56,700 nt of DNA from a phage. Made by a program: the position numbers and the translations under genes. The stretch is taken from the sequence record PZ544694.1. One strand, given 5' to 3'. Shown here piece after piece: positions 1,402 through 51,606 of this stretch; the first letter of the stretch is position 1; every line of letters starts with the position of its first letter. The notes under the pieces are model-generated. The model was not told the origin of the DNA. It made no database searches and saw only the letters and a list, made by a program, of their open reading frames with translations.

Positions 1402-3468
1402 ATGGCTAAATACAAAAATCTCTTTGAGATCGCGGTCAAGATGTCGGATAACTTACGACCCCCGGAAAGGTTGACCGTTTCTAATGCAGCATCTCAATAT
1501 CGATATGTAAATTCTCCCGGGTCGTATGTAGGCCCGTGGTTGAATACAACAACGCCGTATATGGTCGAACCAATGGACGTATTAACTTCGCGCAATCACA
1601 GCAAGATGGCGTTTGTAGGCCCGGCACAGTCAGGTAAAACCGACGCGATTATCATTAATGGCGTGTCATACTCAATCAAAGTCTCACCGATGGATACAAT
1701 GGTATTCTGTCCGACAATGGCAGCCGCCCGAGACTTTTCTATGCGACGTATTGATCGTCTTCACCGACACAGCCCGCTAATCGGCGAGCAATTGTTGAAA
1801 GGTAGAGACACCGACAATAAATTCGATAAACAATACATTACAGGTATGATGTTAACTATCACATACCCTACCGTGACCGAATTGGCCGGACGACCGGTTC
1901 CAAGAATATTGATGACCGACTTTGACCGTATGGACGACGATATCGGCGGTGATGGTAATCCATTTGACTTGGCAACACAGCGTACAACAACCTTTGGTTC
2001 GTTTGCTATGACTATGGCCGAATCGTCCCCGTCGAGAGAGATTCTTGACCCGCACTGGATAGCTAAGTCACCGCATGAGGCTCCGCCGTGTACCGGTATT
2101 ATTGCGCTTTACAACCGTGGGGATAGACGACGTTGGCAATGGCCGTGTCCTCACTGTGACGAATATTTCGAGGGTAAATTCGAGCATCTAACGTGGGACA
2201 ACGGAAAACAGCTATCTAACCGAGAGAAAGCAGAAACCGTACAAATGGTATGCCCGGAATGTGGTTGTTTGATCCACCCCGACGAACGCTTTGAAATGAA
2301 TTTATTCGGAGTGTGGGTTCCGGAGGGTTGTAAAGTTGATAAGAGCGGGAGACTTACGGGCAAAGCCCCTCATACCGACTTCATTTCTTACTGGCTCCGC
2401 GGTACGGCAGCCGCCTTTACGACATGGCAAAAACTGGTAAACATCTACCTCGATGCCCTTGACGAATATCAACGGACGTACTCAGAAGAAGCCTTGAAGA
2501 AATTCTGGAATAACAACATGGGTGAGCCGTATCAGCCTAAGTCGTTAGAATCAGTCCGCGCACCGGAAGCACTGAAAAGCCGGTCATCAGATTACCCGCT
2601 AGGCATGGTTCCGAATGACGTTCGATTCCTCGTAGCAACGATAGACGTTCAATTGAATAGCTTCGTAGTACAGGTGTTCGGTATTTCCCCGGGTTCACCG
2701 TATGACACTCATGTTATAGACCGGTTCTTCATCAACAAGTCGGAGCGTAAGGACGAAGACGGCGACGCAATGATCTTACAGCCGGCGACATACGAAGAAG
2801 ACTGGAAACTTATCGAAAAACAGGTAATAGATAAAGAGTATCCGTTGTCAGACGGTAGCGGTAGAATGATGTCAATTAAGATGACCGGTTGTGACTCCGG
2901 GGGTAAATCTGGCGTAACCGGCATGGCATACGCGTTCTATCGATATTTGAAGACAAAGAATAAACATGCTCGCTTCATCTTATTGAAAGGTGGCACACGA
3001 GTAACAGACCCGAGAACCCGTATTAGCTATCCGGACTCTAACCGGAAAAACGATAAGAATGCAGCTAGAGGAGAAATCCCGGTATTATTCTTAAACTCGA
3101 ACTTGTTGAAAGACGCATTAAACGGACGACTAGATTGTATTGAGCCTCACAAGGGCTATTATAATATGACTAGGGAATTACCGGACGAATTTTTCTCGGA
3201 GCTATGCGCCGAAACGAGAACCGCGAAAGGTTGGGAGAATTTAGCGCAAGCCCGAAACGAAGCATGGGACTTAAGCTACTACTGTTTGGGCCTTTGTACG
3301 TCTCCGGAGTTATTACGAGTAGAGTCGATAAATTGGGACAACCCCCCAACGTGGGCGGAGGAATGGGATAATAATACGATGGTCAGGGAACCCGAGGAAG
3401 AAAAACCATTCGCCTTTCAACCTCGACCGATGTTAGACTTTAGCCGTTTAGGTGAACTATTAGGATAG
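1402..3468 (+). CDS. terminase large subunit (GpA family)
   Basis: 688 aa; Walker A-like GPAQSGKTD; CPHC/CPEC Cys pairs; FTTW, VATIDVQ, MTGCDSGG and NEAWDLSYY blocks colinear with lambda gpA. Confidence 0.85.
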   Translation: MAKYKNLFEIAVKMSDNLRPPERLTVSNAASQYRYVNSPGSYVGPWLNTTTPYMVEPMDVLTSRNHSKMAFVGPAQSGKTDAIIINGVSYSIKVSPMDTMVFCPTMAAARDFSMRRIDRLHRHSPLIGEQLLKGRDTDNKFDKQYITGMMLTITYPTVTELAGRPVPRILMTDFDRMDDDIGGDGNPFDLATQRTTTFGSFAMTMAESSPSREILDPHWIAKSPHEAPPCTGIIALYNRGDRRRWQWPCPHCDEYFEGKFEHLTWDNGKQLSNREKAETVQMVCPECGCLIHPDERFEMNLFGVWVPEGCKVDKSGRLTGKAPHTDFISYWLRGTAAAFTTWQKLVNIYLDALDEYQRTYSEEALKKFWNNNMGEPYQPKSLESVRAPEALKSRSSDYPLGMVPNDVRFLVATIDVQLNSFVVQVFGISPGSPYDTHVIDRFFINKSERKDEDGDAMILQPATYEEDWKLIEKQVIDKEYPLSDGSGRMMSIKMTGCDSGGKSGVTGMAYAFYRYLKTKNKHARFILLKGGTRVTDPRTRISYPDSNRKNDKNAARGEIPVLFLNSNLLKDALNGRLDCIEPHKGYYNMTRELPDEFFSELCAETRTAKGWENLAQARNEAWDLSYYCLGLCTSPELLRVESINWDNPPTWAEEWDNNTMVREPEEEKPFAFQPRPMLDFSRLGELLG

Positions 3469-4053
3469 ATGGCAAAGGCACCGGTAACAACAAGACGTCG
3501 TAGCAATCAGCTAGACCGTGAATCCGAGTCGATGATCTTCGACGGGGTTAACATTACTCAGATCGCAAAGATATTTAACATGGAGCGTAGAGACGTTACG
3601 CCCAAGATCCGAGAAGTTCCTCCTTGCGGGGAACGAGGCGGGTATCCGATTTACAAATTAAATGAAGTGGCGCCATACCTAGTAAAGCCCCTGTATGATG
3701 TCGAAACCTACATTAAGCGAATGCACCCCAACGAGCTTCCTAAAATGCTCTCTAAAGAGTTCTGGAACGGAATGAAAGCTAAGCAGGACTACGAGTTGAG
3801 AGAGGGTGAGCTATGGCCTACCGACCAAGTAGAAGCGCTAATGTCGGAGTCTTTTAAACACTTACGCATGTCATTACTCTTAGTAACGGACTCACTGGAA
3901 CGTGAATCCACCCTCACCGATCATCAAAGAACCCGCATCACGGAAATGATAGACGGCGCGCTAAATGAGATGGCGCAAACACTCGTTGAGGCATTCGGAG
4001 ACCGGGCTAAGACGGAAGTCAAAGAGAGTACCGTAGGTGGCAAGAATGGCTAA
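3469..4053 (+). CDS. terminase small subunit (Nu1-like, HTH DNA-binding)
   Basis: 194 aa; N-terminal HTH-like IFDGVNITQIAKIFNMERRDV; C-terminal region resembles lambda Nu1; last 8 nt (ATGGCTAA) identical to first 8 nt of the terminase large ORF. Confidence 0.55.
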   Translation: MAKAPVTTRRRSNQLDRESESMIFDGVNITQIAKIFNMERRDVTPKIREVPPCGERGGYPIYKLNEVAPYLVKPLYDVETYIKRMHPNELPKMLSKEFWNGMKAKQDYELREGELWPTDQVEALMSESFKHLRMSLLLVTDSLERESTLTDHQRTRITEMIDGALNEMAQTLVEAFGDRAKTEVKESTVGGKNG

Positions 4054-9834: not shown

Positions 9835-10317
9835 ATGTCACAACAAAACGGCGTTTTAGAAATGTTATTAGCTAGCTTCGCAACTTTAAACGAGAATATC
9901 GAGAAGTTAAACGGAAACATCGAAGCGTTGGTAGCTAACGGCGTAGCATCGGGTAAAACTGAAACTAATGCCGACACTAAAGCTGAAAGCAAATCTGAAA
10001 CTAAAGCAGAAAGCAAGTCAGAGACTAAGACAGAAGAAAAGAAAGCGGATAAAAAATCTAATTCTAAAAAATCTGAAAAACAAGCTGACAAGCCGGCGGA
10101 TAAACCTAAATACACTAAATCAGACATCACCGAAGCGCTTCGCAAAGTTCGAGCTGATATCGACAAAGAAGAAGCGGTTCGCATCATCAATGAAGTCGGC
10201 GGTGTTGAGAAGATGGGCCAGATCCCAGAAGATAAGTATGAAGCTGTTTTCCAAGCGTGTGAAGCATCTCTTAACGGTGAATCAGATGACGACTCAGGCG
10301 ATGACGACGATATGTAA
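9835..10317 (+). CDS. hypothetical protein, charged repeats (KAESKSETK) and acidic C-terminus
   Basis: 160 aa frame-1 ORF; low-complexity Lys/Glu/Ser repeats; no recognised domain. Confidence 0.4.
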   Translation: MSQQNGVLEMLLASFATLNENIEKLNGNIEALVANGVASGKTETNADTKAESKSETKAESKSETKTEEKKADKKSNSKKSEKQADKPADKPKYTKSDITEALRKVRADIDKEEAVRIINEVGGVEKMGQIPEDKYEAVFQACEASLNGESDDDSGDDDDM

Positions 10318-10653
10318 TTGACTGGATTGTCTCGTTTCGACACGGCCTATAATACTCGTTATGAAATCCCTGTCAACACCTTTTTGACGAAATTTTTATA
10401 TCGGGTATCCACCTCAATGTTAGGCCACCCGAAAAGTTTCATTGCCGGTAAGATGTTTATCGCCTTTTAGGTGATACTTTTATCCTCTCAACTGATATCG
10501 CTCTCAGGTGGCCGTAGATTTAAGTCCGTTCACGTATTGACTTTCTGTTTTAAGTGGAATATCCCGCGCGTTGACTTATCTATAATTCTTGCGGTATTAT
10601 CTGCGTCTACCCTCGGGTTAGATTTATCACAACTAAGGAGCAAGTATTTATGA

Positions 10654-38646: not shown

Positions 38647-41600
38647 ATGGGGCTACACATGGGGATCGGCCGTGGCCCTATTGATGAATTGATGGAAATC
38701 GAGGTCGGCGGAAGAACCGCTTGGCGTGGTTCCGTTAAAGAGTCCTCGTTCTTTCGGATACGGGCTGAAAATCTTTTCGGGGGTAAGAAAGCGGAGGGAG
38801 GCATTGAGGGTGGTTTCGAACTCTACATGGGCGATAAGGATCAGGTCGTTAGCGACAAACTTAAATCCATGTTGGGCGGTGGGAGCCAACCGGAGTTTCG
38901 CGGAGTAGCTACCGGCTATTTCGATGGTTTAGTGTCGGCCATGAACCCATACCCGAAAGCGTGGCGATTTAAAATACGTCGCATCTTAAAAGGTTGGGAC
39001 GGTGGGGTGTGGTATCCGGAAAAAGCGGTCATAGAACTTACCGGCCACGATGACGAGGGGAAAGAGTATCCCATCAAGGCGATGAACCCGGCTCACGTTA
39101 TTTACGAGTGTATGACAAACCGAGATTGGGGCCGAGGTATCTCTCGTGACCTACTGTTTGACTCGGAGTTCCGAAAGGTGGCCGATACGTTGTTCGAGGA
39201 GGGGTTCGGGATCTGTATTGCGTGGAGACGCCAAGACACCCTAGAGTCTTTTATCCAGAATATACTTAACCACATTTCAGGCGTGTTATACGTCGATAAG
39301 TTTACCGGTACTTTCAAACTCAAGTTACTTCGTAATGACTACGATGCGGATAACTTGCCGGTGTACGGTTTTGAGAGCGGGTTACTACAAATCGAGGAAG
39401 CGACTAACGGCGCAATCCATGGTCTGATGAATGAGTGTGTCGTTAAATGGTTCAACCCGATCGTCGGTAAAGAGAGTCAAGTTCGAGCACAGAACCTAGC
39501 CCTGATTCAGACTTCCGGCGCCATCAAAAGCGACACATTCACGTATGAGGGGGTGCCAACCGCAAAACTGGCCACTATCATAGCAGAAAGAGACTTACGT
39601 GTTGCGTCTACTAACGTCCGCCGGTTCACCCTAGTTTGTGACCGTCGAGCATGGCGAGTACAACCGGGAGACGTTTTGAAGATTTCCGACCCAAAGACAC
39701 GCGGACTTGAGAGCGTAATCGTTCGTGTAGCGGACACAGAGGAGAGTAAACAATCCGATGGTCAGATACGATTATCTTGCGTACAAGACACGTTCTCGTT
39801 CGACCTGAACACGTTTACTGGTGTTCAAGACCCGTCTTTCCCTAAACCGAACCTAAACCCGGTTCCGGCCAGACGTTTAGTTTATGAGGCGACATACGCA
39901 GAATTGTCGTCCCTATTCCCACTAGGAGAGTTTGAGGCCATCAAGCCGTCTTTCGGGTATTTGCGGGCACAGGCGGAAAAAGGCTCACCGGTAACGATGG
40001 CGTTCGAGATGCACGTCCAAAACCCGACCACTGGAAAGTATGAGAAAACAGGTGCGGGGGATTTCACTGCGCTATTCGAATTACCGGTTGACCTTGGATA
40101 TTTAGACCGCTATATCCGAATGAAAGATCCGGTAGATGAAGACTTGATTGAAGTCGGGGACGTTTTTTACGTCAACCAAGAAATAATCATGATCCAGTCT
40201 ATCGAGGAAGACGGGTTAGTCGAAATACGTCGAGGCGTGTACGACACCGTACCTCACCAACACCCCGCTGGCTCCGTAGTGTGGGATATGGTTCAAGGTG
40301 GCGGGCTTGACCTGACAACCCGACAAGCGGGAGAAACCTTATCGGTGAAGATACTCCCATGGACGCTATCGGGTGGGGTTCTCGACGAGTCTAACGTGTC
40401 CGAAGATGAACTGACTTTCAATTACCGATTCTACCGCCCATACGCTCCGGGTAAAGTAGAACTCACCTCAGTGGAAAGCACGGAACCGAACCCTTGGTTT
40501 AATGGCCATGTTTTACGAGCGGACGTCGGAGAGGCCGAAGTGCCTGACGCCTTGACGATAACGTGGGCGCACCGAGATAGACCGATGCAACAAGACAAGC
40601 CTATTTATCATGAGCAAGATAGTATCGGGCCGGAGCCGGGAACGACATACCGAATTAGTATCCTAAACGCTAAGGGTGAAGTAATCCGCAGAGAAAACGG
40701 GATTACCGGCACACAGTTTGTCTACACTTACGGCCAAGCGAGCCTAGATTTGAACGTGGAAGCGTCAGCCATAGATCCGGTTGCTGGGTACTTGAGATTA
40801 GAGTCTATGCGCGACGGGTTCGAATCGTGGCAAAACTACTTAATACCGATCACCGTTTTCAAGAAACCGCCTCAAATGGCGTATGTTAGTTTCTTAAACC
40901 AATCTGTCGCTCAGGTGTCCGATAAAATCGACCCCGAAGATAAAGACGGAGAGACGGCCGTAGACGCAAAAGCCATGGTTAGTTTTGTCAACCAATCCGT
41001 AGCACAGGAGAGCGAAGATCTATCTTCCGGTGGCGGGGGCCTACCTGATGGCGTGAATGTTAGCTATGTGCGACAACCGGTTTCGCAACAAGGCAAATTA
41101 GTTCCTATCGTAGATAGCCAACTGTTTGAGTTCCCTTACTTAATGTTGCTACGCCATGGGTTCGAACCGTCCGCCTCACAATTCTTCGCTACGGTAGCTA
41201 GACCGTCAGACCGTGTAACCGACGGGTACGATTTGTTCGAGAAAGAGAAGAACGATACAGAGTACGTGAACCAAGGGGCGCAACCGTGGACGCCGTGGGG
41301 GATTCTGTCTAAGGCAATCTCATATCTGGATAATGAGATAATCCTCGATGCTACGTCGGATTCTGACGGGGTTCCTACTGAGGACGCGATGCCGGGCGAC
41401 GTGATTTTCGTCGGAGCCGAAGCGATGGTGATCCGGGGCATCGATGGTAAACGTATTACGGTTGGCCGTGGTTGTGTTGATACAATCCCCGCACTTCATG
41501 GGAAAGGTCAAGTTGTGTGGTTTGTCGACAAACAAATAGCTTCCGGGCAACGTAAATATCACGACGGCCAGACTTGCGTAGTTGCCGTAAGGCCTCATTC

Positions 41601-42426
41601 TCTCGCAGCAGAAATCCAGCCTAAAGACGTGGTAAACAAACAACTGGAAGTGAAACTACGCGCGGATAGACCATATCCACCGGGGTTCTTGCTCGGCAAC
41701 GGTGAGCACTTTTTCAAAGGGTGGGACGCACTGGCCGATAACTTTGACTACTATGACCCGCAAGGCAAAGACTTAGTGATGACGTGGGCGCACCGTAACC
41801 GAGTTCGTCAAGGGGAAACCGTGTTAGACCATCTTGATGTGGGACAACAACGGCCAAGCGACGTAATGTATCGAGTGTGGATCGGGAAACGATATACTCC
41901 TAGATACAGCAATCGCACAGTTACTATCACCATGGGGACGTATTATACTCGCGACGCAGGAATGACGATCAAGGCCGAAGACTTACACGCGTTCGGCAGA
42001 CGAGTAGGGATCTTGACGGAATCCACCGGCTACGTCTATGTTTCGATCACGGTATCCGCTGTCGATGAAAACGAGCTTAGTAGCTGGCAAGGATATAATA
42101 CTCAGTGTAAAGTACCCTCAATTCCGGCCAAGCGAGATGTTGACCCCAATCCGGGAAGACCTGACCCGGGAACTGGCGGTGGCGAAACTGGCGGTGGCGG
42201 AACTGGCGGTGGTACGAACCCCGGCAATCCAGATCCGGGTCAGCCTGATAGACCGAACCCCGACCCCGACCCGGGCAACCCTGATCCAGAACCTAATCCG
42301 GGCAACCCTGACCCTGATCCGGTCGAGCCTCCGCCACCGTTGGTTGTTGCCGGTTGGTCAAACAAGTGGGATCATGATTGGGCGGAACGACTACCAGACC
42401 AAGACGTCAAAGAGGATACTGAATAA
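38647..42426 (+). CDS. host specificity / central tail fiber protein (lambda gpJ-like) with Gly/Pro-rich C-terminal tract
   Basis: 1259 aa; region GISRDLLFDSEF...GFGICIAWRRQDTLESFIQNI colinear with lambda J (GMGKRLGAADVDKW...); C-terminal PNPGRPDPGTGGGETGGGG... at about 42145-42345. Confidence 0.6.
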   Translation: MGLHMGIGRGPIDELMEIEVGGRTAWRGSVKESSFFRIRAENLFGGKKAEGGIEGGFELYMGDKDQVVSDKLKSMLGGGSQPEFRGVATGYFDGLVSAMNPYPKAWRFKIRRILKGWDGGVWYPEKAVIELTGHDDEGKEYPIKAMNPAHVIYECMTNRDWGRGISRDLLFDSEFRKVADTLFEEGFGICIAWRRQDTLESFIQNILNHISGVLYVDKFTGTFKLKLLRNDYDADNLPVYGFESGLLQIEEATNGAIHGLMNECVVKWFNPIVGKESQVRAQNLALIQTSGAIKSDTFTYEGVPTAKLATIIAERDLRVASTNVRRFTLVCDRRAWRVQPGDVLKISDPKTRGLESVIVRVADTEESKQSDGQIRLSCVQDTFSFDLNTFTGVQDPSFPKPNLNPVPARRLVYEATYAELSSLFPLGEFEAIKPSFGYLRAQAEKGSPVTMAFEMHVQNPTTGKYEKTGAGDFTALFELPVDLGYLDRYIRMKDPVDEDLIEVGDVFYVNQEIIMIQSIEEDGLVEIRRGVYDTVPHQHPAGSVVWDMVQGGGLDLTTRQAGETLSVKILPWTLSGGVLDESNVSEDELTFNYRFYRPYAPGKVELTSVESTEPNPWFNGHVLRADVGEAEVPDALTITWAHRDRPMQQDKPIYHEQDSIGPEPGTTYRISILNAKGEVIRRENGITGTQFVYTYGQASLDLNVEASAIDPVAGYLRLESMRDGFESWQNYLIPITVFKKPPQMAYVSFLNQSVAQVSDKIDPEDKDGETAVDAKAMVSFVNQSVAQESEDLSSGGGGLPDGVNVSYVRQPVSQQGKLVPIVDSQLFEFPYLMLLRHGFEPSASQFFATVARPSDRVTDGYDLFEKEKNDTEYVNQGAQPWTPWGILSKAISYLDNEIILDATSDSDGVPTEDAMPGDVIFVGAEAMVIRGIDGKRITVGRGCVDTIPALHGKGQVVWFVDKQIASGQRKYHDGQTCVVAVRPHSLAAEIQPKDVVNKQLEVKLRADRPYPPGFLLGNGEHFFKGWDALADNFDYYDPQGKDLVMTWAHRNRVRQGETVLDHLDVGQQRPSDVMYRVWIGKRYTPRYSNRTVTITMGTYYTRDAGMTIKAEDLHAFGRRVGILTESTGYVYVSITVSAVDENELSSWQGYNTQCKVPSIPAKRDVDPNPGRPDPGTGGGETGGGGTGGGTNPGNPDPGQPDRPNPDPDPGNPDPEPNPGNPDPDPVEPPPPLVVAGWSNKWDHDWAERLPDQDVKEDTE

Positions 42427-42636
42427 ATGGAAAAAAGAATTTACATCAAACATGTTCGTCAAGCCGGATATTGTGCTAACGGCGTAGGCCGGGTATTAGA
42501 GCGGATCGGTGTTGACGAAAGAGACTTTTTACAGAACGGGTTGCTGATCACCCCGCAACTGGCTAACAACACAAACCCGATGATACGACGTGTGGTAGAA
42601 ATCGCACTCGCTGATAGTGAGGTAAAACGTGGGTAA
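42427..42636 (+). CDS. hypothetical protein (tail module)
   Basis: 69 aa frame-1 ORF. Confidence 0.3.
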   Translation: MEKRIYIKHVRQAGYCANGVGRVLERIGVDERDFLQNGLLITPQLANNTNPMIRRVVEIALADSEVKRG

Positions 42637-43689: not shown

Positions 43690-45378
43690 ATGGCACTATT
43701 AGGATTACGGCCGTTTAGGGAGACAAATTCCGAGGGGTTGGCGCCAGAACAGAGCGCCCGCCTTTCGGGGGCGTACCAAATATTCGCCCAAGAAATCTAT
43801 GACAAGCCCGACGTCGGTCAAAAATATTACGGGTCTAAATGGACTCGTTTTCCGGCGGGGGAATATACGATATCGATGATCGCTAACGGCTTCGGCGGTG
43901 TTGGTCTTGAGGGAACCGTCATCGCGGATAATGTTAGTAACGGTGGGTCTTGGACTACGCCCACTACCGCAAAATTTTCGATAACGGCCAACGCGGTAAT
44001 TAAATTCGATATCTGGTATACGGCCAACGCGACTAATGAGCCAGCGTATTTCATCTACGTGATACATGATAGTACCGGAGAAGTATTTGAAGTATCGAGA
44101 GCGAATGAGTATATAGGGAATATCGTTCCTATCGAAATGGAAGATATGCCCCCACGACCTCCGTTCTCGGTAGACAATCGACTACAATTGCCGGTGTTCC
44201 TACCGAAACCAAACTGGAAAGATGGCGTAGTTGAGGGGCTATCGTGGCTCACTGACGTTCTTCAATCAGAAACGGGCGCGGAACAACGTAGACGACTAAG
44301 AGAGCAACCGAGACAACACTTGACGGCGAGTTTTGCTAGTTTCGGAGTAACGAGAAACCTAATTGACGGATACCTTACGGCCGTTGGCCCTAACGAGGGT
44401 TTAGTCCCCTTATGGTTTTACGAAGAAGTCGTAGACAACAAACTAACCGTGGCTACCGTGGAAGTGTTGGGGGACTTTAAAGACATACCGCTACGCGTTA
44501 ATGATACGGTGATCATTAGAGAACCTTACGACATGCTCGCTTTTGAGTTGAATGTCATCAAAGAATACTCCGACAATAAAATCGTATTACGGTATGGTTT
44601 ACAAAGAGATTTCATTCTCGGTAGCACAATAACGCCTATGCGACAATCTCGCGTGGAACTAACGGCCGAAGTATCGCAACTCACGGATCAAGTTAGCACG
44701 ACTCAACTACAATTCAGCGTAACCGAAGACCCGACAATATTTGAGAAGTGGGACGCTCCGGTTTACAAAAATACCGGATTGCGTGTGTTCACTATGGAAC
44801 CTAACTTTAGGGATATCGCATTTACATACGGGTCGAATGCAGTATTTTTCGATGGTCAGGTGGGCGGTATTTCAATGGCCTATCCGGGAGGTCAAGCGCA
44901 ACAATGGGAACGACTCGGGTTCCATATTAACGGCCGTGAGGATATGCGTAAATTCGTAGAGATGATCCACACAATGAATGGCCGGTGGAAATCATTTCAC
45001 TTACCGACGTACCGAGATGAATTTGAACTGATACAAGATATCAATACCAACGACGGGGCGCTTAGAGTACACCCATCAGGCTATACGCTTTACGGCCAAA
45101 GTAGCCAGAACACCCGAAAACACATCATGATCGAGTTGTTTGACGGCCGAGTTTTTTACAACACGATAATCTCAAGTAGAACTATGCGAGGGGAGGAGTG
45201 GCTATTCTTAGCAGAGACACTACCTAACATTGCAATGAGTGACGTTCGTCGTGTATGCTATATGCCGATAACTCGCTTAGATATAGATTCTATTGAGTTC
45301 CAACGATTAACTGATAGTCGGGGAGTAAGCACAGTTACGCTCGTATTCGTAAATATTCCGATGGAGCGAACCGTTTAG
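43690..45378 (+). CDS. putative distal tail / tail tip assembly protein
   Basis: 562 aa ORF between tape measure and DUF2163 protein; no motif recognised. Confidence 0.3.
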   Translation: MALLGLRPFRETNSEGLAPEQSARLSGAYQIFAQEIYDKPDVGQKYYGSKWTRFPAGEYTISMIANGFGGVGLEGTVIADNVSNGGSWTTPTTAKFSITANAVIKFDIWYTANATNEPAYFIYVIHDSTGEVFEVSRANEYIGNIVPIEMEDMPPRPPFSVDNRLQLPVFLPKPNWKDGVVEGLSWLTDVLQSETGAEQRRRLREQPRQHLTASFASFGVTRNLIDGYLTAVGPNEGLVPLWFYEEVVDNKLTVATVEVLGDFKDIPLRVNDTVIIREPYDMLAFELNVIKEYSDNKIVLRYGLQRDFILGSTITPMRQSRVELTAEVSQLTDQVSTTQLQFSVTEDPTIFEKWDAPVYKNTGLRVFTMEPNFRDIAFTYGSNAVFFDGQVGGISMAYPGGQAQQWERLGFHINGREDMRKFVEMIHTMNGRWKSFHLPTYRDEFELIQDINTNDGALRVHPSGYTLYGQSSQNTRKHIMIELFDGRVFYNTIISSRTMRGEEWLFLAETLPNIAMSDVRRVCYMPITRLDIDSIEFQRLTDSRGVSTVTLVFVNIPMERTV

Positions 45379-48300
45379 GTGGCAAATAGAGACGTAGAAC
45401 TACGGATCAGAGCCAGAGATGATAGTCAGAAAACGCTAAAGCAAGTATCAAAGACGTTAGATGACTTAACATCGGCGCAGACCCGTAACGCGGACGCAGC
45501 GAAACGAGGTGACGCTTCGGTCAGAGAACTAGAACAACAATATAAGAAATTAGAGAATGCCGGACAACAATTGCTCCGGCTTAATTCTTTAACAGAGATG
45601 TTTACCCGCCAGAAAGAGGCGCTTAATAAGGTAAACACTCAATTGGCCGAAGCCAAGAAAAAACATAGTGACCTTTCCTCCGCTATGAACGGTGCGTCTA
45701 ATGTCACTAAGAAAATGCAGTCCGACTTAGACAAAGCAGAACGAGCGGTAAAGCGTTTGACCGACCAACAAGACCGGTCGACCAAGAGCGTACAAAAGAC
45801 CGCCAAGGAACTATCTCGTTTCGGGATTTCGTCGAATGATATTGCGACCGCACAGAAAAGAATACGTGATGAAGTAACCCGGACAAACCAAGCGCTAGCC
45901 CGCCAAGAGAAGATCATAGGTGACGTGCCGACTCGCGCACAGAAAGCCCACGCCCAACTACTAGCAAGTTTGAAGTTACAAGCAAACCAACTGGTAGCGA
46001 GCACGAAAGGCTATCAAACACTTGGCCGAGTGATCTCGTCTTTACCGTCAATGTCCGGGCAAATGGCCGACTTGATGGCTCCGGCAGAAGCAGCTAGGCG
46101 TAAGATAGGTACACTAGAAAAACAGATAAACGATTTAGCTACGGCATCAAAACGTTGGCGCAAAGACGCTAGCGGTATGAATTCAGACCTAAAGGCCCTA
46201 GAAGCCTCCGCGAAATCGGCGATAGGAATGTCCCGCATGATCGAGACTTTCCAACGTCAAACCGAAGCGGTGAGAAAAGCGAGAGCGGAATACCGATCAG
46301 CACAGGCCGACGCTAAGAACTTAGCAAATCAGGTAAGACAAGCCGGCACAGCGAATGCCGAGATGGGCGCAAAACTTCAAGCGTCTAATGCTCGACTACG
46401 CGAAGCAAGCCAAGCGTTACGGAATGAAACGGCTTCCGCTAGACAGACTCAATCCGCGTTACGGTCAGCCGGTATTGATACTAGAAACCTAGGAGCGGAA
46501 CAACAACGACTCCGGGGATTAGTACAAAACTCGGTGGGCGGTATTAATAACCTCCGAGCATCGTTAGAGCGGTTGTCCGGTAGCGCCCGATCTTCCGGCA
46601 AAGCCTTTTCATTCTTCCGAGACGAGGGACGTACCACGTTGTCATTCATGCAGAGAATGCGTGGTGACGTTCTTAGTCTGGCGTCAGCCTACATCGGGGT
46701 TCAAGGCGCCGTAGACATGGCGAAAGGTGCGGTAGAGGCCTTTAAGGTTCAACAACAAGCCATGGTTAAAATCGGAACGGTGGTGGGGTCTGGCCCGGAA
46801 GAACGAGCGAAAGAATGGGAGTATATGTTAGGCCTCTCAGATGCGCTCGGTATTAAAATTGAAACACTAAGTAAGGCATATACCAAGTTTGCGGTATCGG
46901 CTAAGGAAGTAGGCCTATCGCAGAAAGAAGCTAAATTTATCTTTGAGAATATCGCAAAGACGGCTCGCGTATATCACCTATCCGACGATGATATGAACGG
47001 CGTGTTCTTGGCCTTGGAACAAATGCTCTCGAAAGGACAAGTTTATGCAGAGGAGTTGAGGCAACAATTAGGTGAACGTCTCCCCGGCGCCGTAGCGATG
47101 TTCGCGAAAAGTTTAGGTAAGACCATACCCGAATTTACAAAGATGATGGAGAATGGCGAGGTAGACGCCAGATCCGTGATTAACTTCGCGAACGAACAAG
47201 GCAAAGCTATCGAAGCGCAACTCGCCGAAGCGCAAAAAGGCGTAGATGCGATCGAAGCTAGAGCATCAAATGCGATGTTCAACCTCAAACTGGCGATATC
47301 AAAATCCGGGTTCATCGAAGCGTATACCTCGATGTTGGAGAAACTGACGGAGTTCATCACATCAGACCGAGGTAAAGAAGCAGCCGAAAAACTCGGAACA
47401 GCGTTCTCCGCGATTGCCGACGGGGTGATATGGGCCGTGGATAATGTAGACCTACTAATAGACGCCCTAAAGGTCTTAGCATCGATAAAGGTGATAAAGA
47501 TCTTAGTATCCACCGGCCGGAATTTGATATCCGTATTCAAGGAAGTTAAGGGCGTCATTTCAACGGTATTGCCTCTAGGAAAACGCTTGGTAGGAGGTAT
47601 CGGATCTCTAATTGCTAGCACAGGACTACTCACCGGTGCGCTGAAACTTCTACTAAGAGCGATACCGTTTGTCGGGGTGGCCCTGTTAGCGTGGGATATG
47701 GTTTCCATTCTCTACGAGAACAACGAAGCGTTCCGGAAGTTTTGCGACGAGACGATCGAGCGGGCTAAGTACCTCGGCAAGATGCTAATCGATTATGCGA
47801 AAGTACCGGGTACTGCGATATATGATTTATTAGTGTCGTTCGTCAGGCCAATAACTACGTTGTTCGGTGATTCCATCAAACAAGTTGGCAAGTGGTTGGC
47901 AGACCTGTTAGGAATGTTACCTGTGGTGGGGGACTCACTAAGCGCATGGGTCATGGGTATTACTGACGACCTGACGAAAGCTGACCGTGAGATATTCGAG
48001 TCTTCGAATAAGCTCAGCAAAGATATCGTAGACAATTGGGATAAGATGACCGGCGACGTATCTTATGTCCACGAAAAAGCCATGGAAACGGTGGCAGACA
48101 ATGCCGGAAAGACCGCCGGAGCCGTAATCGGTTCAATGGAACTGGTGAGCAAGGCTGCAGAACAGTTAGCCAAGAAACAAAGCGGATTCGAGTTTCAGAA
48201 AGACCCCGGAACGGGAATAGGTCAAAGAGACCTCGACATGCGTGCGTTGAAAAAGGAGATCGAGAAACGCCAGAACGCGGAGGAGAAAGCCGACCTAGCA

Positions 48301-49710
48301 GCCAGAAAAGCAGCACAACGTAAGAGCCTCGCAGGACGCCTACAAATCATCGATGAAGAATACGCTAAGATGTATGAAAAAGCGAAAGCCATCGGTGGCA
48401 AAGAGGGCGACGAGATGAAAAAGCAAATCGACGACCTAGTAGCTCACGCGAAACGGTCAGAGACGATGCTATTCAATGCTCAACAAAGTTCTAGCGGTGG
48501 CCTAGATAAGCGTAAGCGCAAGATCGATGCTATCACGCAAGCGCTTGAAAGAATGAACGCAGAAGTTAACAGACGTCAAACTAAGGCTGATCCGGAGTCG
48601 TCTCTCGATGACCGAATTAACGCGGAGATCGAGAAGTCAAACGTTAAGATTAATGCGTTGAAAAAAGAGGCCCTAGCCATAGGCGGACAAGAGGGCAAAC
48701 AACTGGCCGACAACTTGGAGAAGCTACGAGAGAAAACAAACCTCTATCTCTCAGAGAAAATGCAAGTCGAGGAGGTTAAGCGTCTTCAAGATGCAGTTAA
48801 TGCGCAATTAGAGATCAAAAAGAACAAGATTGAAGAAATCAACGCCAAAAGAAAAGCGGGCTTGATTGATGACCAGCAACAAGCTGACGCGATCAAGGCC
48901 ATAAATGAGGGGTCAATAGGGGCGATATCTTCATCACTAGACGCTCTTAGCAACCAAGTGGCGCAGTCATCTACATTATTCAGTGAAGAAGAACTAGTCC
49001 GGATAACAACTGGTATTAGTAAAATACGTTCCGAACTACAAGGCGTTGAGGGTGAATTCACTAAACTAGACAGCCAAGTTGTAAACGGGGTTCTAGGAGG
49101 TTTCGACACGGCGATCAACTCGGCTTATGATGGGATCGTTAAAGTCGCAACTGGGGCAGAAAGTATCGGAGACGCATTCGCAAACCTAGGCGTCGCAGTG
49201 GCTCAGTTTTTCGCAGATTTCCTAAAACAAATAGCTATGGCAATAATGCAACAAATGGTACTCAATGCGATAGCCGGCATGGGTGGAGGGGTAGGAGCAG
49301 CAGCAGTATCGATGGGCGGTGTGGTAGCCCCGGTAAAACACTCCGGCGGTGCGGTCGGGAGCGGAGGTAGGTCTAGAACCGTGGCTCCCTCTACATTTGC
49401 ATCGGCTCCGAAGTTCCATAACGGGGGAATGCCCGGAATTAAGCCTAACGAAATACCGACAATATTAGAGCGAGGGGAAGAAGTCTTATCCAAGAACGAC
49501 CCTAGAAATATCGCAAATGGCGGACAGGCAGCAAGACCGGGAGGACAAGCCGGCCCGACAAACATCAAACTAGTAGCAGTTGATGACCGTAGCAAGATAC
49601 CGGAAGCCATGGCAACGGCCGAGGGCGAGCAGGTTATGATTGTTAACTTAAACCGAAAATCACCCGCGATCCGTAGCATATTAAATCGCGGAAGCTCTAA
49701 GAGGACATAA
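45379..49710 (+). CDS. tail tape measure protein
   Basis: 1443 aa, GTG start; long coiled-coil N-terminal half, Gly/Ala-rich hydrophobic segments; position between chaperone and distal tail genes. Confidence 0.8.
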   Translation: MANRDVELRIRARDDSQKTLKQVSKTLDDLTSAQTRNADAAKRGDASVRELEQQYKKLENAGQQLLRLNSLTEMFTRQKEALNKVNTQLAEAKKKHSDLSSAMNGASNVTKKMQSDLDKAERAVKRLTDQQDRSTKSVQKTAKELSRFGISSNDIATAQKRIRDEVTRTNQALARQEKIIGDVPTRAQKAHAQLLASLKLQANQLVASTKGYQTLGRVISSLPSMSGQMADLMAPAEAARRKIGTLEKQINDLATASKRWRKDASGMNSDLKALEASAKSAIGMSRMIETFQRQTEAVRKARAEYRSAQADAKNLANQVRQAGTANAEMGAKLQASNARLREASQALRNETASARQTQSALRSAGIDTRNLGAEQQRLRGLVQNSVGGINNLRASLERLSGSARSSGKAFSFFRDEGRTTLSFMQRMRGDVLSLASAYIGVQGAVDMAKGAVEAFKVQQQAMVKIGTVVGSGPEERAKEWEYMLGLSDALGIKIETLSKAYTKFAVSAKEVGLSQKEAKFIFENIAKTARVYHLSDDDMNGVFLALEQMLSKGQVYAEELRQQLGERLPGAVAMFAKSLGKTIPEFTKMMENGEVDARSVINFANEQGKAIEAQLAEAQKGVDAIEARASNAMFNLKLAISKSGFIEAYTSMLEKLTEFITSDRGKEAAEKLGTAFSAIADGVIWAVDNVDLLIDALKVLASIKVIKILVSTGRNLISVFKEVKGVISTVLPLGKRLVGGIGSLIASTGLLTGALKLLLRAIPFVGVALLAWDMVSILYENNEAFRKFCDETIERAKYLGKMLIDYAKVPGTAIYDLLVSFVRPITTLFGDSIKQVGKWLADLLGMLPVVGDSLSAWVMGITDDLTKADREIFESSNKLSKDIVDNWDKMTGDVSYVHEKAMETVADNAGKTAGAVIGSMELVSKAAEQLAKKQSGFEFQKDPGTGIGQRDLDMRALKKEIEKRQNAEEKADLAARKAAQRKSLAGRLQIIDEEYAKMYEKAKAIGGKEGDEMKKQIDDLVAHAKRSETMLFNAQQSSSGGLDKRKRKIDAITQALERMNAEVNRRQTKADPESSLDDRINAEIEKSNVKINALKKEALAIGGQEGKQLADNLEKLREKTNLYLSEKMQVEEVKRLQDAVNAQLEIKKNKIEEINAKRKAGLIDDQQQADAIKAINEGSIGAISSSLDALSNQVAQSSTLFSEEELVRITTGISKIRSELQGVEGEFTKLDSQVVNGVLGGFDTAINSAYDGIVKVATGAESIGDAFANLGVAVAQFFADFLKQIAMAIMQQMVLNAIAGMGGGVGAAAVSMGGVVAPVKHSGGAVGSGGRSRTVAPSTFASAPKFHNGGMPGIKPNEIPTILERGEEVLSKNDPRNIANGGQAARPGGQAGPTNIKLVAVDDRSKIPEAMATAEGEQVMIVNLNRKSPAIRSILNRGSSKRT

Positions 49711-49869
49711 ATGGTACAGGCCGAAGTAGACATTGTTATCAAGCGAGTTAATAATCAAATAGCAACGGAAGCAATATTAATGCAACAATGTATCGCCTCC
49801 GCCGTATGGGGGAAAGAGGGCGCTAAGATTTTCAACAAGACGATAAAGGGGCTACAAGGTGGCAAATAG
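49711..49869 (+). CDS. small ORF in tape-measure/chaperone intergenic (gpT-like) region
   Basis: 52 aa; first 19 nt identical to last 19 nt of ORF 49870-49965. Confidence 0.25.
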   Translation: MVQAEVDIVIKRVNNQIATEAILMQQCIASAVWGKEGAKIFNKTIKGLQGGK

Positions 49870-49965
49870 ATGCGGAGAAAATCAGGGAGGGGGTTAGCCT
49901 CCTCCTGTCCCACGGTCATACGTTCGCACGACACTACCCGATCGGCATGGTACAGGCCGAAGTAG
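49870..49965 (+). CDS. small ORF in gpT-like region
   Basis: 31 aa; read from frame 1. Confidence 0.2.
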   Translation: MRRKSGRGLASSCPTVIRSHDTTRSAWYRPK

Positions 49966-50418
49966 ATGTCATTATCCGCATTCGAACCAACGAAAAAAAG
50001 CGTAACTATCAATGATTCTATTTCCATCGAAGTTCGAGGCTTATCACTAAACGATATCTCTCGATTAATCCAGTTACACGCCCAAGATTTAGACGGCGTA
50101 TTCGACTTATATTCACAAGGAGTTGGGGCCGGGAAAGAATTAGATAGTTTAGTATTCGCTAACTACTTGCTCACCCTGATATCCTCCGCACCGGGGCTAA
50201 TTAGTAGCATTATCGCGGTTTCTGCGGACGAACCTACCATGGCCGATAAAGCCTCCCTCCTACCGATAACGGCGCAATACGATTTAATGATGGCCGTATT
50301 TGAGTTAACTTTCTCGGACATTGCTACGCTAAAAAAGATCATGGCGAACGTAATGGAGAAAGTGGGAGAAGCGAACGGGAAAACAGTTCCGGCCAAGAAA
50401 GCCAAGAAAAAGGGTTAA
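49966..50418 (+). CDS. tail assembly chaperone (gpG-like)
   Basis: 150 aa acidic protein between major tail and tape measure; ends KKAKKKG with AAGAAAAAGGG stretch. Confidence 0.45.
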   Translation: MSLSAFEPTKKSVTINDSISIEVRGLSLNDISRLIQLHAQDLDGVFDLYSQGVGAGKELDSLVFANYLLTLISSAPGLISSIIAVSADEPTMADKASLLPITAQYDLMMAVFELTFSDIATLKKIMANVMEKVGEANGKTVPAKKAKKKG

Positions 50419-51606
50419 ATGGCACAACCATGTACAAGCAGCAACGACCAGAATTACGTCGTAGGGCGTGGTCGACTATTCTTCGACAAGTTCGTCGACG
50501 GTTGTAACAACTCCGAGCATGGCGAAATGTATTTCGGTAATACCCCGGAGTTATCACTATCTTCTGACACAGAAACGTTAGACCATTATTCGTCTGATTA
50601 TGGTATGCGTGAAAAAGACCTAACCGTGATGCTAGAGCATTCTCGTTCTGGTTCATTCACAACCGACCATATCTCCGCGGACAACCTAGCGTTGTTCTTC
50701 CTAGGGGACAAAACGCATGTTACTCAGACTCAGGTGACAGGCAACAAAGAAGTATTCGAAAACGTGGCATTAGGTCGTCACTACCAACTCGGCACAACGG
50801 ATATCCTACCGATGGGCGTTCGTAACATCGAGAATCTGTTAGTTTACGTGGCGGACGGTGATACAACCATCAACCTAGGCGATGGCGATGTGTCAACTAT
50901 CGACGGTGTAACTAAAGTAAATTTTGCCGGCCAGATCGACTACGACCTAGAGTTAGGACGTATCTATATCGAACCTACCGCTACTGAAATTAAAAACGGT
51001 CAGCAGTTAGTAGTCCAGTATGACATCGAGGCGCAGGCTCGCGAAATCATCATTGCCCGTAACCGCATGATCTACGGCTCACTGCGATTCTTGTCAGCTA
51101 ACCCGGTAGGTAGCGCGAAAGATTTCTACTGGCCCAAAGTCATGTTACAACCTGACGGAGACTATGCACTTAAAGGTGACGACTGGCAACAAATTGGGTT
51201 TACCTTTAGCGTTCTTCGCAAAAACCGCAAAGTGGAGCAGGTTTACATCGAGTCAGCGATGGCAAGAGCATCTACGCCCCCAAAGCCTGATCCGGAGCCG
51301 GAATACCGTCTAACTCTTAGCGTTACTCCGACCTCCGGTACTGAGGGTGATACTTTAGTAGCTAAGGTAAAAGCTACGAAAGACGGCGCTCCGAGAAAAA
51401 CAAAAGTGGTCTTTGCCTTTAGCTCCGACGAGGTGGAACTGGCCGATAGTCACCCTGACGGTGTAGAGACAGACGGGGTTACGGGAGAGGCCACTGTGAA
51501 TCTTACGGTAGGCCCCGTGTCCGGTTCCGCGACAAAAGTTACGATAACAGTAACCGATAGCGACGGAGGAAGTGCGACGGAGGAAGTTACCGTCAACCCA
51601 AAGTAA
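50419..51606 (+). CDS. major tail protein with C-terminal Ig-like domain
   Basis: 395 aa; C-terminal ~100 aa beta-rich Ig-like (TLSVTPTSGTEGDTLVAKVKAT...VTITVTDSDGG); position as in lambda gpV. Confidence 0.5.
   Translation: MAQPCTSSNDQNYVVGRGRLFFDKFVDGCNNSEHGEMYFGNTPELSLSSDTETLDHYSSDYGMREKDLTVMLEHSRSGSFTTDHISADNLALFFLGDKTHVTQTQVTGNKEVFENVALGRHYQLGTTDILPMGVRNIENLLVYVADGDTTINLGDGDVSTIDGVTKVNFAGQIDYDLELGRIYIEPTATEIKNGQQLVVQYDIEAQAREIIIARNRMIYGSLRFLSANPVGSAKDFYWPKVMLQPDGDYALKGDDWQQIGFTFSVLRKNRKVEQVYIESAMARASTPPKPDPEPEYRLTLSVTPTSGTEGDTLVAKVKATKDGAPRKTKVVFAFSSDEVELADSHPDGVETDGVTGEATVNLTVGPVSGSATKVTITVTDSDGGSATEEVTVNPK

Follow-up and report, generated by a model that had tools for sequence, protein, structure and literature searches.

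A probable programmed -1 ribosomal frameshift joining putative tail assembly chaperone gene G to an unannotated T frame in Lavrentievavirus phages

The locus consists of gene G, which encodes a putative tail assembly chaperone, two short ORFs (orf31 and orf52) and the tape measure gene, with the major tail protein gene on the other side of G. It lies in a 56,700-nucleotide stretch of phage DNA, the whole of which is called the window here. The sequence-only reading of the window had placed ORFs of 150, 31 and 52 aa, followed by the tape measure, at the positions listed in Table 1, and all were found there. Reading of the sequence also confirmed the end of G as AAG AAA AAG GGT TAA.

The window (1-56700) is not natural DNA: it consists of annotated CDSs joined end to end, all on the + strand. 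Throughout the 56.7 kb each long + strand ORF begins on the base next to the preceding stop, intergenic DNA has been removed, and gene overlaps are present twice. Junctions of abutting CDSs lie, for example, at 45378/45379, 49710/49711, 49869/49870, 49965/49966 and 50418/50419, and when the tail region was mapped to natural DNA the window order proved to be the reverse of the transcription order. Because the window is a concatenation of CDSs, features that depend on adjacency need checking in the natural genome. Two duplications at the locus illustrate the construction. The sequence ATGGTACAGGCCGAAGTAG occurs at both 49947-49965 and 49711-49729, and 45379-45389 is a copy of 49859-49869, the natural 11-nt overlap between the tape measure gene and T. 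The 19-nt overlap of the two small ORFs, which had been noticed from the window, is real and present in natural DNA, where orf31 runs to 3408 and orf52 starts from 3390 of the reference sequence described below. Elsewhere in the window, other pairs of overlapping + strand ORFs (>=90 aa, in different frames) are 9835-10317 with 9968-10321, and 38647-42426 with 42038-42487.

Table 1. Features of the locus in the window and in the natural reference sequence (L001)
Feature	Window	Strand	L001	Remarks
Major tail protein gene	50419..51606	+	1519-2706	395 aa; directly upstream of G in natural DNA; order also in NC_052983
Spacer, major tail gene to G				138 nt; natural DNA only, missing from window
Gene G, putative tail assembly chaperone, 0-frame product	49966..50418	+	2845-3297	150 aa; stop TAA 50416-50418
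Slippery heptamer A_AAA_AAG (candidate)	50331..50337	+		X_XXY_YYZ in G register (CTA AAA AAG = L K K)
Dual-coding overlap	50337..50418	+		0 frame, G C-terminal tail IMANVMEKVGEANGKTVPAKKAKKKG; -1 frame, predicted GT linker DHGERNGESGRSERENSSGQESQEKGL...
Second heptamer A_AAG_GGT	50409..50415	+		canonical, G register; abuts G stop TAA (run to 50418)
15-nt spacer after G (ACTTTTTCATCTCCT)	between 50418 and 49870 in natural DNA			missing from window
orf31 CDS piece	49870..49965	+	3313-3408	31 aa; in G frame, 5 codons past G stop
orf52 CDS piece	49711..49869	+	3390-3548	-1 frame; C-terminal 52 residues of predicted T; stop TAG 49867-49869
Tape measure protein gene	45379..49710	+	GTG start at 3538	1443 aa, GTG start; 11-nt overlap with T end

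A megablast search with window 49400-51000 matched 28 phage records at 95-99.5% identity, always as four rearranged pieces. The matching records belong to Lavrentievavirus (Casjensviridae) and include the Proteus phages PM87, pPM01 and NotEvenPhaged as well as 'Escherichia phage E21'. Near-identical genomes have been deposited with Proteus, Salmonella, E. coli, Pseudomonas aeruginosa, Enterococcus durans and Staphylococcus ureilyticus as hosts, and one of these records carries an UNVERIFIED flag. It is implausible that a phage whose genome shares 99% identity with that of a Proteus phage infects Gram-positive bacteria, and contamination or a wrong host assignment likely lies behind the Gram-positive-host records.

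As the natural reference sequence we used OK499986 18170-23218 (Lavrentievavirus, Casjensviridae), called locus L001, to which the G, orf31 and orf52 pieces and the 5' end of the tape measure gene all map exactly. In OK499986 and NC_052983, G and the -1 ORF described below sit between the major tail and tape measure genes, and Pfam TMP_3 matches the tape measure homologues in related contigs. The spacer between the major tail gene and G holds a terminator-like hairpin, AAGGCGCC-TCCG-GGCGTCTT, followed by a T run (L001 2751-2780; hairpin 2751-2770), and in Klebsiella phage Soft a terminator is annotated at the same place, after the major tail gene. With such a hairpin, G, GT and the tape measure gene could be transcribed less than the gene of the tail tube protein.

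The G protein matched Pfam PF23789 (Pre_tape_measure) with an E value of 1.6e-51 and 174.4 bits (cut-off 27), the alignment running from G residue 1 to 149 and from profile position 1 to 148 of 149. When L001 was translated in three frames, the -1 frame relative to G proved free of stops from L001 3183, inside G, to 3548, 11 nt beyond the tape measure start, and it crosses the G stop, the 15-nt spacer and all of orf31. Shuffled sequences stayed open in 0.07% of cases over the 363-nt stretch and in 1% over the 248 nt after the G stop, so that the openness of this frame exceeds the chance expectation. No ATG, GTG or TTG occurs in the -1 frame before the orf52 ATG (L001 3390), and there is no Shine-Dalgarno (SD) sequence ahead of either orf31 or orf52. 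The conserved core of T, as we call the part encoded in the -1 frame, is thus, judging from the reading frames, accessible only from G.

The conservation of the -1 frame begins well before orf52. The orf31 DNA read in this frame encodes the conserved T motif AEKIREGVSLLLSHGHTFARHYPIG, and the T-frame peptides upstream of the orf52 Met include EGVSLLLSHGHTFAR and IREGVSLLLSHGHTFAR; the 31-aa translation of orf31 itself matched no family in Pfam or PHROG. In an alignment of 13 reconstructed fusions with 23-70% identity, the conservation of T begins about 22 codons ahead of the orf52 ATG. R162, L168, G172, H173 and Y179, which are invariant, all lie upstream of the orf52 Met, in orf31 DNA. That Met is not conserved, its place being taken by Y, T, V or H in relatives. 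Substitutions relative to Kokobel1 after the G stop were distributed 17/7/35 over the T-frame codon positions (p = 3.6e-5), and within the orf31 stretch they were distributed 7/2/14 in the T frame and 2/14/7 in the orf31 frame. The single within-genus difference in this stretch, an A-to-G change, leaves the T protein unaltered but replaces an amino acid of orf31. The openness and conservation of the -1 frame upstream of the orf52 ATG indicate that orf52 is the C-terminus of T and that orf31 is a spurious call in the G frame, its translation an artefact. The earlier suggestion that the small ORFs are pieces of a frameshift product therefore holds for orf52, which is in the correct frame, and fails for orf31, which is in the G frame past the G stop.

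When G and T were joined by a slip at A_AAA_AAG, the reconstructed GT fusion was 234 aa long and matched phrog_11703 with 216.3 bits (E = 9e-64), from GT residue 1 to 233 and over profile positions 1-232 of 232. The T part alone matched both phrog_11703 and phrog_9221, across and upstream of the orf52 ATG. The idea of an unannotated G/GT frameshift, put forward from the window alone, is thus borne out to the extent that the fusion aligns over its whole length with a family whose members are annotated as frameshift proteins, and contiguous L001 does hold a continuous -1 ORF leading from G through the small ORFs to the tape measure start. In a tblastn search with the fusion, 209 of 246 phage records, from Casjensviridae and a small number of relatives, contained both halves, in two frames. 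PV593182 was suspected of carrying a natural in-frame G-T fusion because of an unusual tblastn identity value, but this record has the same two-frame layout.

Other searches with these proteins gave little. Neither G, T nor GT had a Phage_tail_T or Phage_TAC match in Pfam at E <=1, and the one match to a profile labelled 'tail assembly chaperone', phrog_1442, was weak (E = 0.021). The T domain matched no Pfam family, lambda Phage_tail_T included, so that its role is argued from position and analogy only. A PDB sequence search with the GT profile and a search of NCBIfam returned nothing meaningful. Neither fusion sequence, built with the upstream or with the terminal slip, occurs in a collection of 15 billion proteins, and a word-indexed homologue search with the fusion returned five clusters of G length and no fused protein, showing that the fusion is unannotated near Lavrentievavirus. 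The families phrog_11703, phrog_9221 and phrog_35334, together with RefSeq products, widely apply the name 'tail length tape measure protein' to G and GT of Chi-like phages and to fragments of T; this is a naming error that has spread among records, the protein being the chaperone encoded ahead of the tape measure.

We then considered where ribosomes might change frame. The heptamer A_AAA_AAG stands 81 nt before the G stop, and it occurs at homologous codons in Kokobel1, Yonseivirus, Chivirus, Redjac, AH2, A18P4, MA12 and four metagenomic relatives (L018-L021) that are 54-68% identical to the query. All 19 loci compared, down to 23% GT identity, retain the -1 ORF and have a slip motif at homologous codons. 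A_AAA_AAG itself is present in 15 of them, or 13 if each of the identical pairs (Chi/FSL SP-088 and L020/L021) is counted once. The other four loci have G_GGA_AAG, A_AAA_AAA, G_GGA_AAC or G_GAA_AAG, variants seen in AchV4 (G_GGA_AAG), FoX4 (A_AAA_AAA), Carli (G_GGA_AAC) and DSS3-P1 and RcRios (G_GAA_AAG). The heptamer is canonical in 11 loci, and there the codon ahead of it ends in a base suited to the motif even though the amino acid is L, I, V or A. Moreover, the fusions that we built at A_AAA_AAG for Chi, Redjac and AH2 are identical, letter for letter, to the deposited proteins AIU37952.1, AFU63004.1 and AEY69566.1. The sequence AAAAAAG has been published as the predicted slip site of AH2 gp55/gp56 (Lynch et al. 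2012, PMC3483164), and A_AA.A_AA.G is among the most efficient frameshift motifs in E. coli (Sharma et al. 2014, PMC4066793). We propose A_AAA_AAG (50331-50337) as the main -1 slip site.

Non-canonical G_GAA_AAG lies at about 782-788 in the Ruegeria phage DSS3-P1 locus (L010) and at about 728-734 in that of Rhodobacter phage RcRios (L014). Slipping there would involve imperfect re-pairing in the P site, with only the A_AAG A-site tetramer retained. A joined frameshift CDS is nonetheless annotated in RcRios.

No stimulatory element was detected around the proposed site, which in this respect is unlike the dnaX- or IS-type signals, where a hairpin or pseudoknot follows the heptamer by 5-9 nt, an SD-like element precedes it by 6-17 nt, or both. 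The 60 nt downstream of the heptamer, folded for 11 loci, gave z values of -1.3 to +0.8 against shuffles and no shared structure; the fold of L001 3217-3300 was not significant (z = +0.55); and neither GGAG nor AGGA, as an SD-like stimulator, occurs in the 30 nt upstream of the heptamer. The most stable local element of the centroid fold is a 9-bp hairpin, GGGAGGGGG-UUAG-CCUCCUCCU, in the T coding sequence (window 49885-49906, L001 3328-3349). It was rejected as a stimulator: it starts 34 nt past the terminal heptamer and more than 110 nt past the conserved one, which is too far, its region has a z of -0.44, and it is not kept in Kokobel1 or in two of the metagenomic relatives (L019-L020). As no stimulator was found, a low frameshift efficiency is expected, like that of lambda G/GT rather than that of dnaX. 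A low efficiency is compatible with a lambda-like G/GT system and does not prove one.

The evidence is comparative: the arrangement of the frames, the presence and conservation of the motif, and membership of the protein family. From it we infer that slippage occurs, and that G and T of this Lavrentievavirus, a Chi-like siphophage, are very probably expressed by a programmed -1 ribosomal frameshift that yields G and GT. Most ribosomes would translate G to its stop and produce the 150-aa tail assembly chaperone. A minority would slip back 1 nt on A_AAA_AAG, where the Lys-tRNAs on AAA and AAG could re-pair to AAA and AAA. The shifted ribosomes would then read on in the -1 frame, through the final 81 nt of G, the spacer of 15 nt and the DNA of both small ORFs, and stop 11 nt within the tape measure gene. 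The resulting 234-aa GT would consist of G residues 1-124, a variable linker and a conserved T domain of about 75 aa. In the dual-coding overlap, the C-terminal tail of G is conserved among G proteins; the columns of the -1 linker, which is hydrophilic, are variable and poorly conserved (13-sequence alignment). If lambda gpG/gpGT is a guide, the tape measure protein may be coated by G and by the G portion of GT, the T domain may recruit major tail subunits, and a fixed low GT:G ratio may be needed for tail assembly. As in lambda, both proteins may be indispensable for building the tail and yet be missing from mature virions. A literature search found no experiment on the GT of any Chi-like phage, Lavrentievavirus included, and papers on the phages Saba and Utah do not mention a frameshift in either case.

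We asked whether the shift might instead take place mainly at the end of G. Ribosomes slipping at the terminal A_AAG_GGT, with pausing at the adjacent TAA, would make the full 150-aa G joined to an 84-aa T. This heptamer is a canonical X_XXY_YYZ motif in the G register with a 0-frame stop immediately after it, and A_AA.G_GG.U gives >0.10% frameshifting without stimulators in E. coli (Sharma et al. 2014, PMC4066793). The fusion built with this slip also matches phrog_11703 end to end, with 205.7 bits, which is 10.6 bits below the upstream-site fusion; this advantage of the upstream site is modest because the -1 linker that separates the heptamers shows little conservation. The distribution of the motifs favours the upstream site. 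No terminal A_AAG_GGT stands in Kokobel1 (which has AAA CAG GGC TAG), in the four metagenomic relatives closest to this genus or in any other genus, yet Kokobel1 and those four retain A_AAA_AAG. In addition, the upstream site is the one used in the frameshift proteins deposited for relatives, and the A-rich run at the end of G is explained by the Lys-rich G tail overlapping a conserved E-K of the T frame. Main slippage at the terminal site is therefore improbable. The sequence-only reading was right that the A-rich run could be slippery, inasmuch as it contains a canonical heptamer, but the run is not the conserved site, and A_AAG_GGT would at best be a minor second slip site specific to Lavrentievavirus. 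That both heptamers feed the same -1 ORF in this genus is a rather doubtful proposition. If both were used, GT would come in two forms, with either the -1 linker or the basic 0-frame G tail as its 26-residue linker, and the total GT:G ratio could be raised or tuned in Proteus hosts.

Two further explanations dispense with ribosomal frameshifting. Both small ORFs start with ATG and have been called by gene finders in several records (OR699185), and orf52 is labelled 'putative tail assembly chaperone' in OK499986, as would be the case if orf31 (31 aa) and orf52 (52 aa) were independent genes translated from their own start codons. Neither ORF, however, has an SD sequence; orf31 lacks a family match, and its frame carries most of the substitutions at second codon positions; the within-genus A-to-G change alters orf31 and spares T; and the conservation of T extends through some 22 codons ahead of an orf52 Met that relatives replace. 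RefSeq curation of the same DNA omits both ORFs. We consider independent genes highly improbable. The alternative that GT arises by slippage of RNA polymerase on the A6 run, with one additional A in some mRNAs, draws on the six consecutive A of the heptamer (seven in FoX4) and on the observation that uninterrupted runs of A can lead to slippage and occur less often than expected in every frame of E. coli genes (PMC4066793). The relatives with G_GGA_AAG, G_GGA_AAC or G_GAA_AAG have runs of only 3-4 identical bases, however, and these short-run variants fit tRNA re-pairing and not polymerase slippage. The A6 run is also shorter than the runs that give efficient transcriptional slippage in bacteria (about 9 or more). 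Polymerase slippage thus has very little probability as the source of GT, and a programmed -1 ribosomal frameshift, mainly at A_AAA_AAG, is the reading that we prefer.

Annotation of the locus is uneven. Chi, Soft, Redjac, AH2 and RcRios have a joined frameshift CDS, and the Lavrentievavirus records that we inspected (two GenBank, one RefSeq) are all without a GT product. The four CDSs of OR699185 are exactly those of the window, E21 in RefSeq has only G and the tape measure gene, and some Lavrentievavirus records carry the spurious 31-aa CDS and the truncated 52-aa 'gene'. On the sequence evidence, the case would represent an already known mechanism at a known orthologous site, and so an annotation gap in a genus of Proteus phages and not a discovery: it adds one orthologous example of a frameshift described decades ago and raises no new question. 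Its value is chiefly for annotation. The missing GT product is presumably essential, and a correct gene list is useful because several such phages are in development for the therapy of Proteus mirabilis.

The arrangement resembles that of lambda gpG/gpGT, in which two overlapping ORFs likewise lie between the major tail and tape measure genes. The lambda frameshift was reportedly described by Levin, Hendrix and Casjens in 1993, and Xu, Hendrix and Duda are said to have reported the tail assembly chaperone frameshift as conserved among tailed phages in 2004 (Mol Cell 16:11). Both systems have a -1 slip, here a predicted one, on an X_XXY_YYZ motif ending in A_AAG (G_GGA_AAG in lambda and in AchV4), both lack an evident RNA stimulator, and in both the frame of the longer protein stays open as far as the tape measure gene. 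They differ in that no sequence similarity to lambda is detectable with the Phage_tail_T or lambda-type TAC Pfam families, and in the length of T after the slip, about 110 aa here and about 140 aa in lambda. The HK97 tail assembly chaperone (PDB 2OB9) and YqbN of a B. subtilis prophage (PDB 3KLU) are also named among the closest known systems. The gamma/tau frameshift of E. coli dnaX uses the identical A_AAA_AAG and the shift-prone Lys-tRNA(UUU) (PMC4066793). An upstream SD-like element and a strong downstream hairpin bring shifting there to about 50%, whereas neither stimulator was detected here, and the dnaX shift truncates its product, whereas the one proposed here would extend the protein.

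The nearest counterparts are Chi gp24/gp23 (KM458633), a tail assembly chaperone with its joined frameshift form, and gp56/gp55 of Burkholderia phage AH2 (PMC3483164), which belong to the same family Casjensviridae and share PF23789 for G and PHROG 11703 for the fused protein. Their genes occupy the same position between the major tail and tape measure genes, and the end of the T ORF likewise overlaps the tape measure start. In Chi, A_AAA_AAG lies 81 nt before the G stop, as in the window, and in AH2 it lies 57 nt before it, the codons being homologous; their GT proteins are about 39% (Chi) and 33% (AH2) identical to that predicted from the window. Lavrentievavirus differs from both in that its fusion is unannotated and in that it carries a second canonical heptamer at the G stop.
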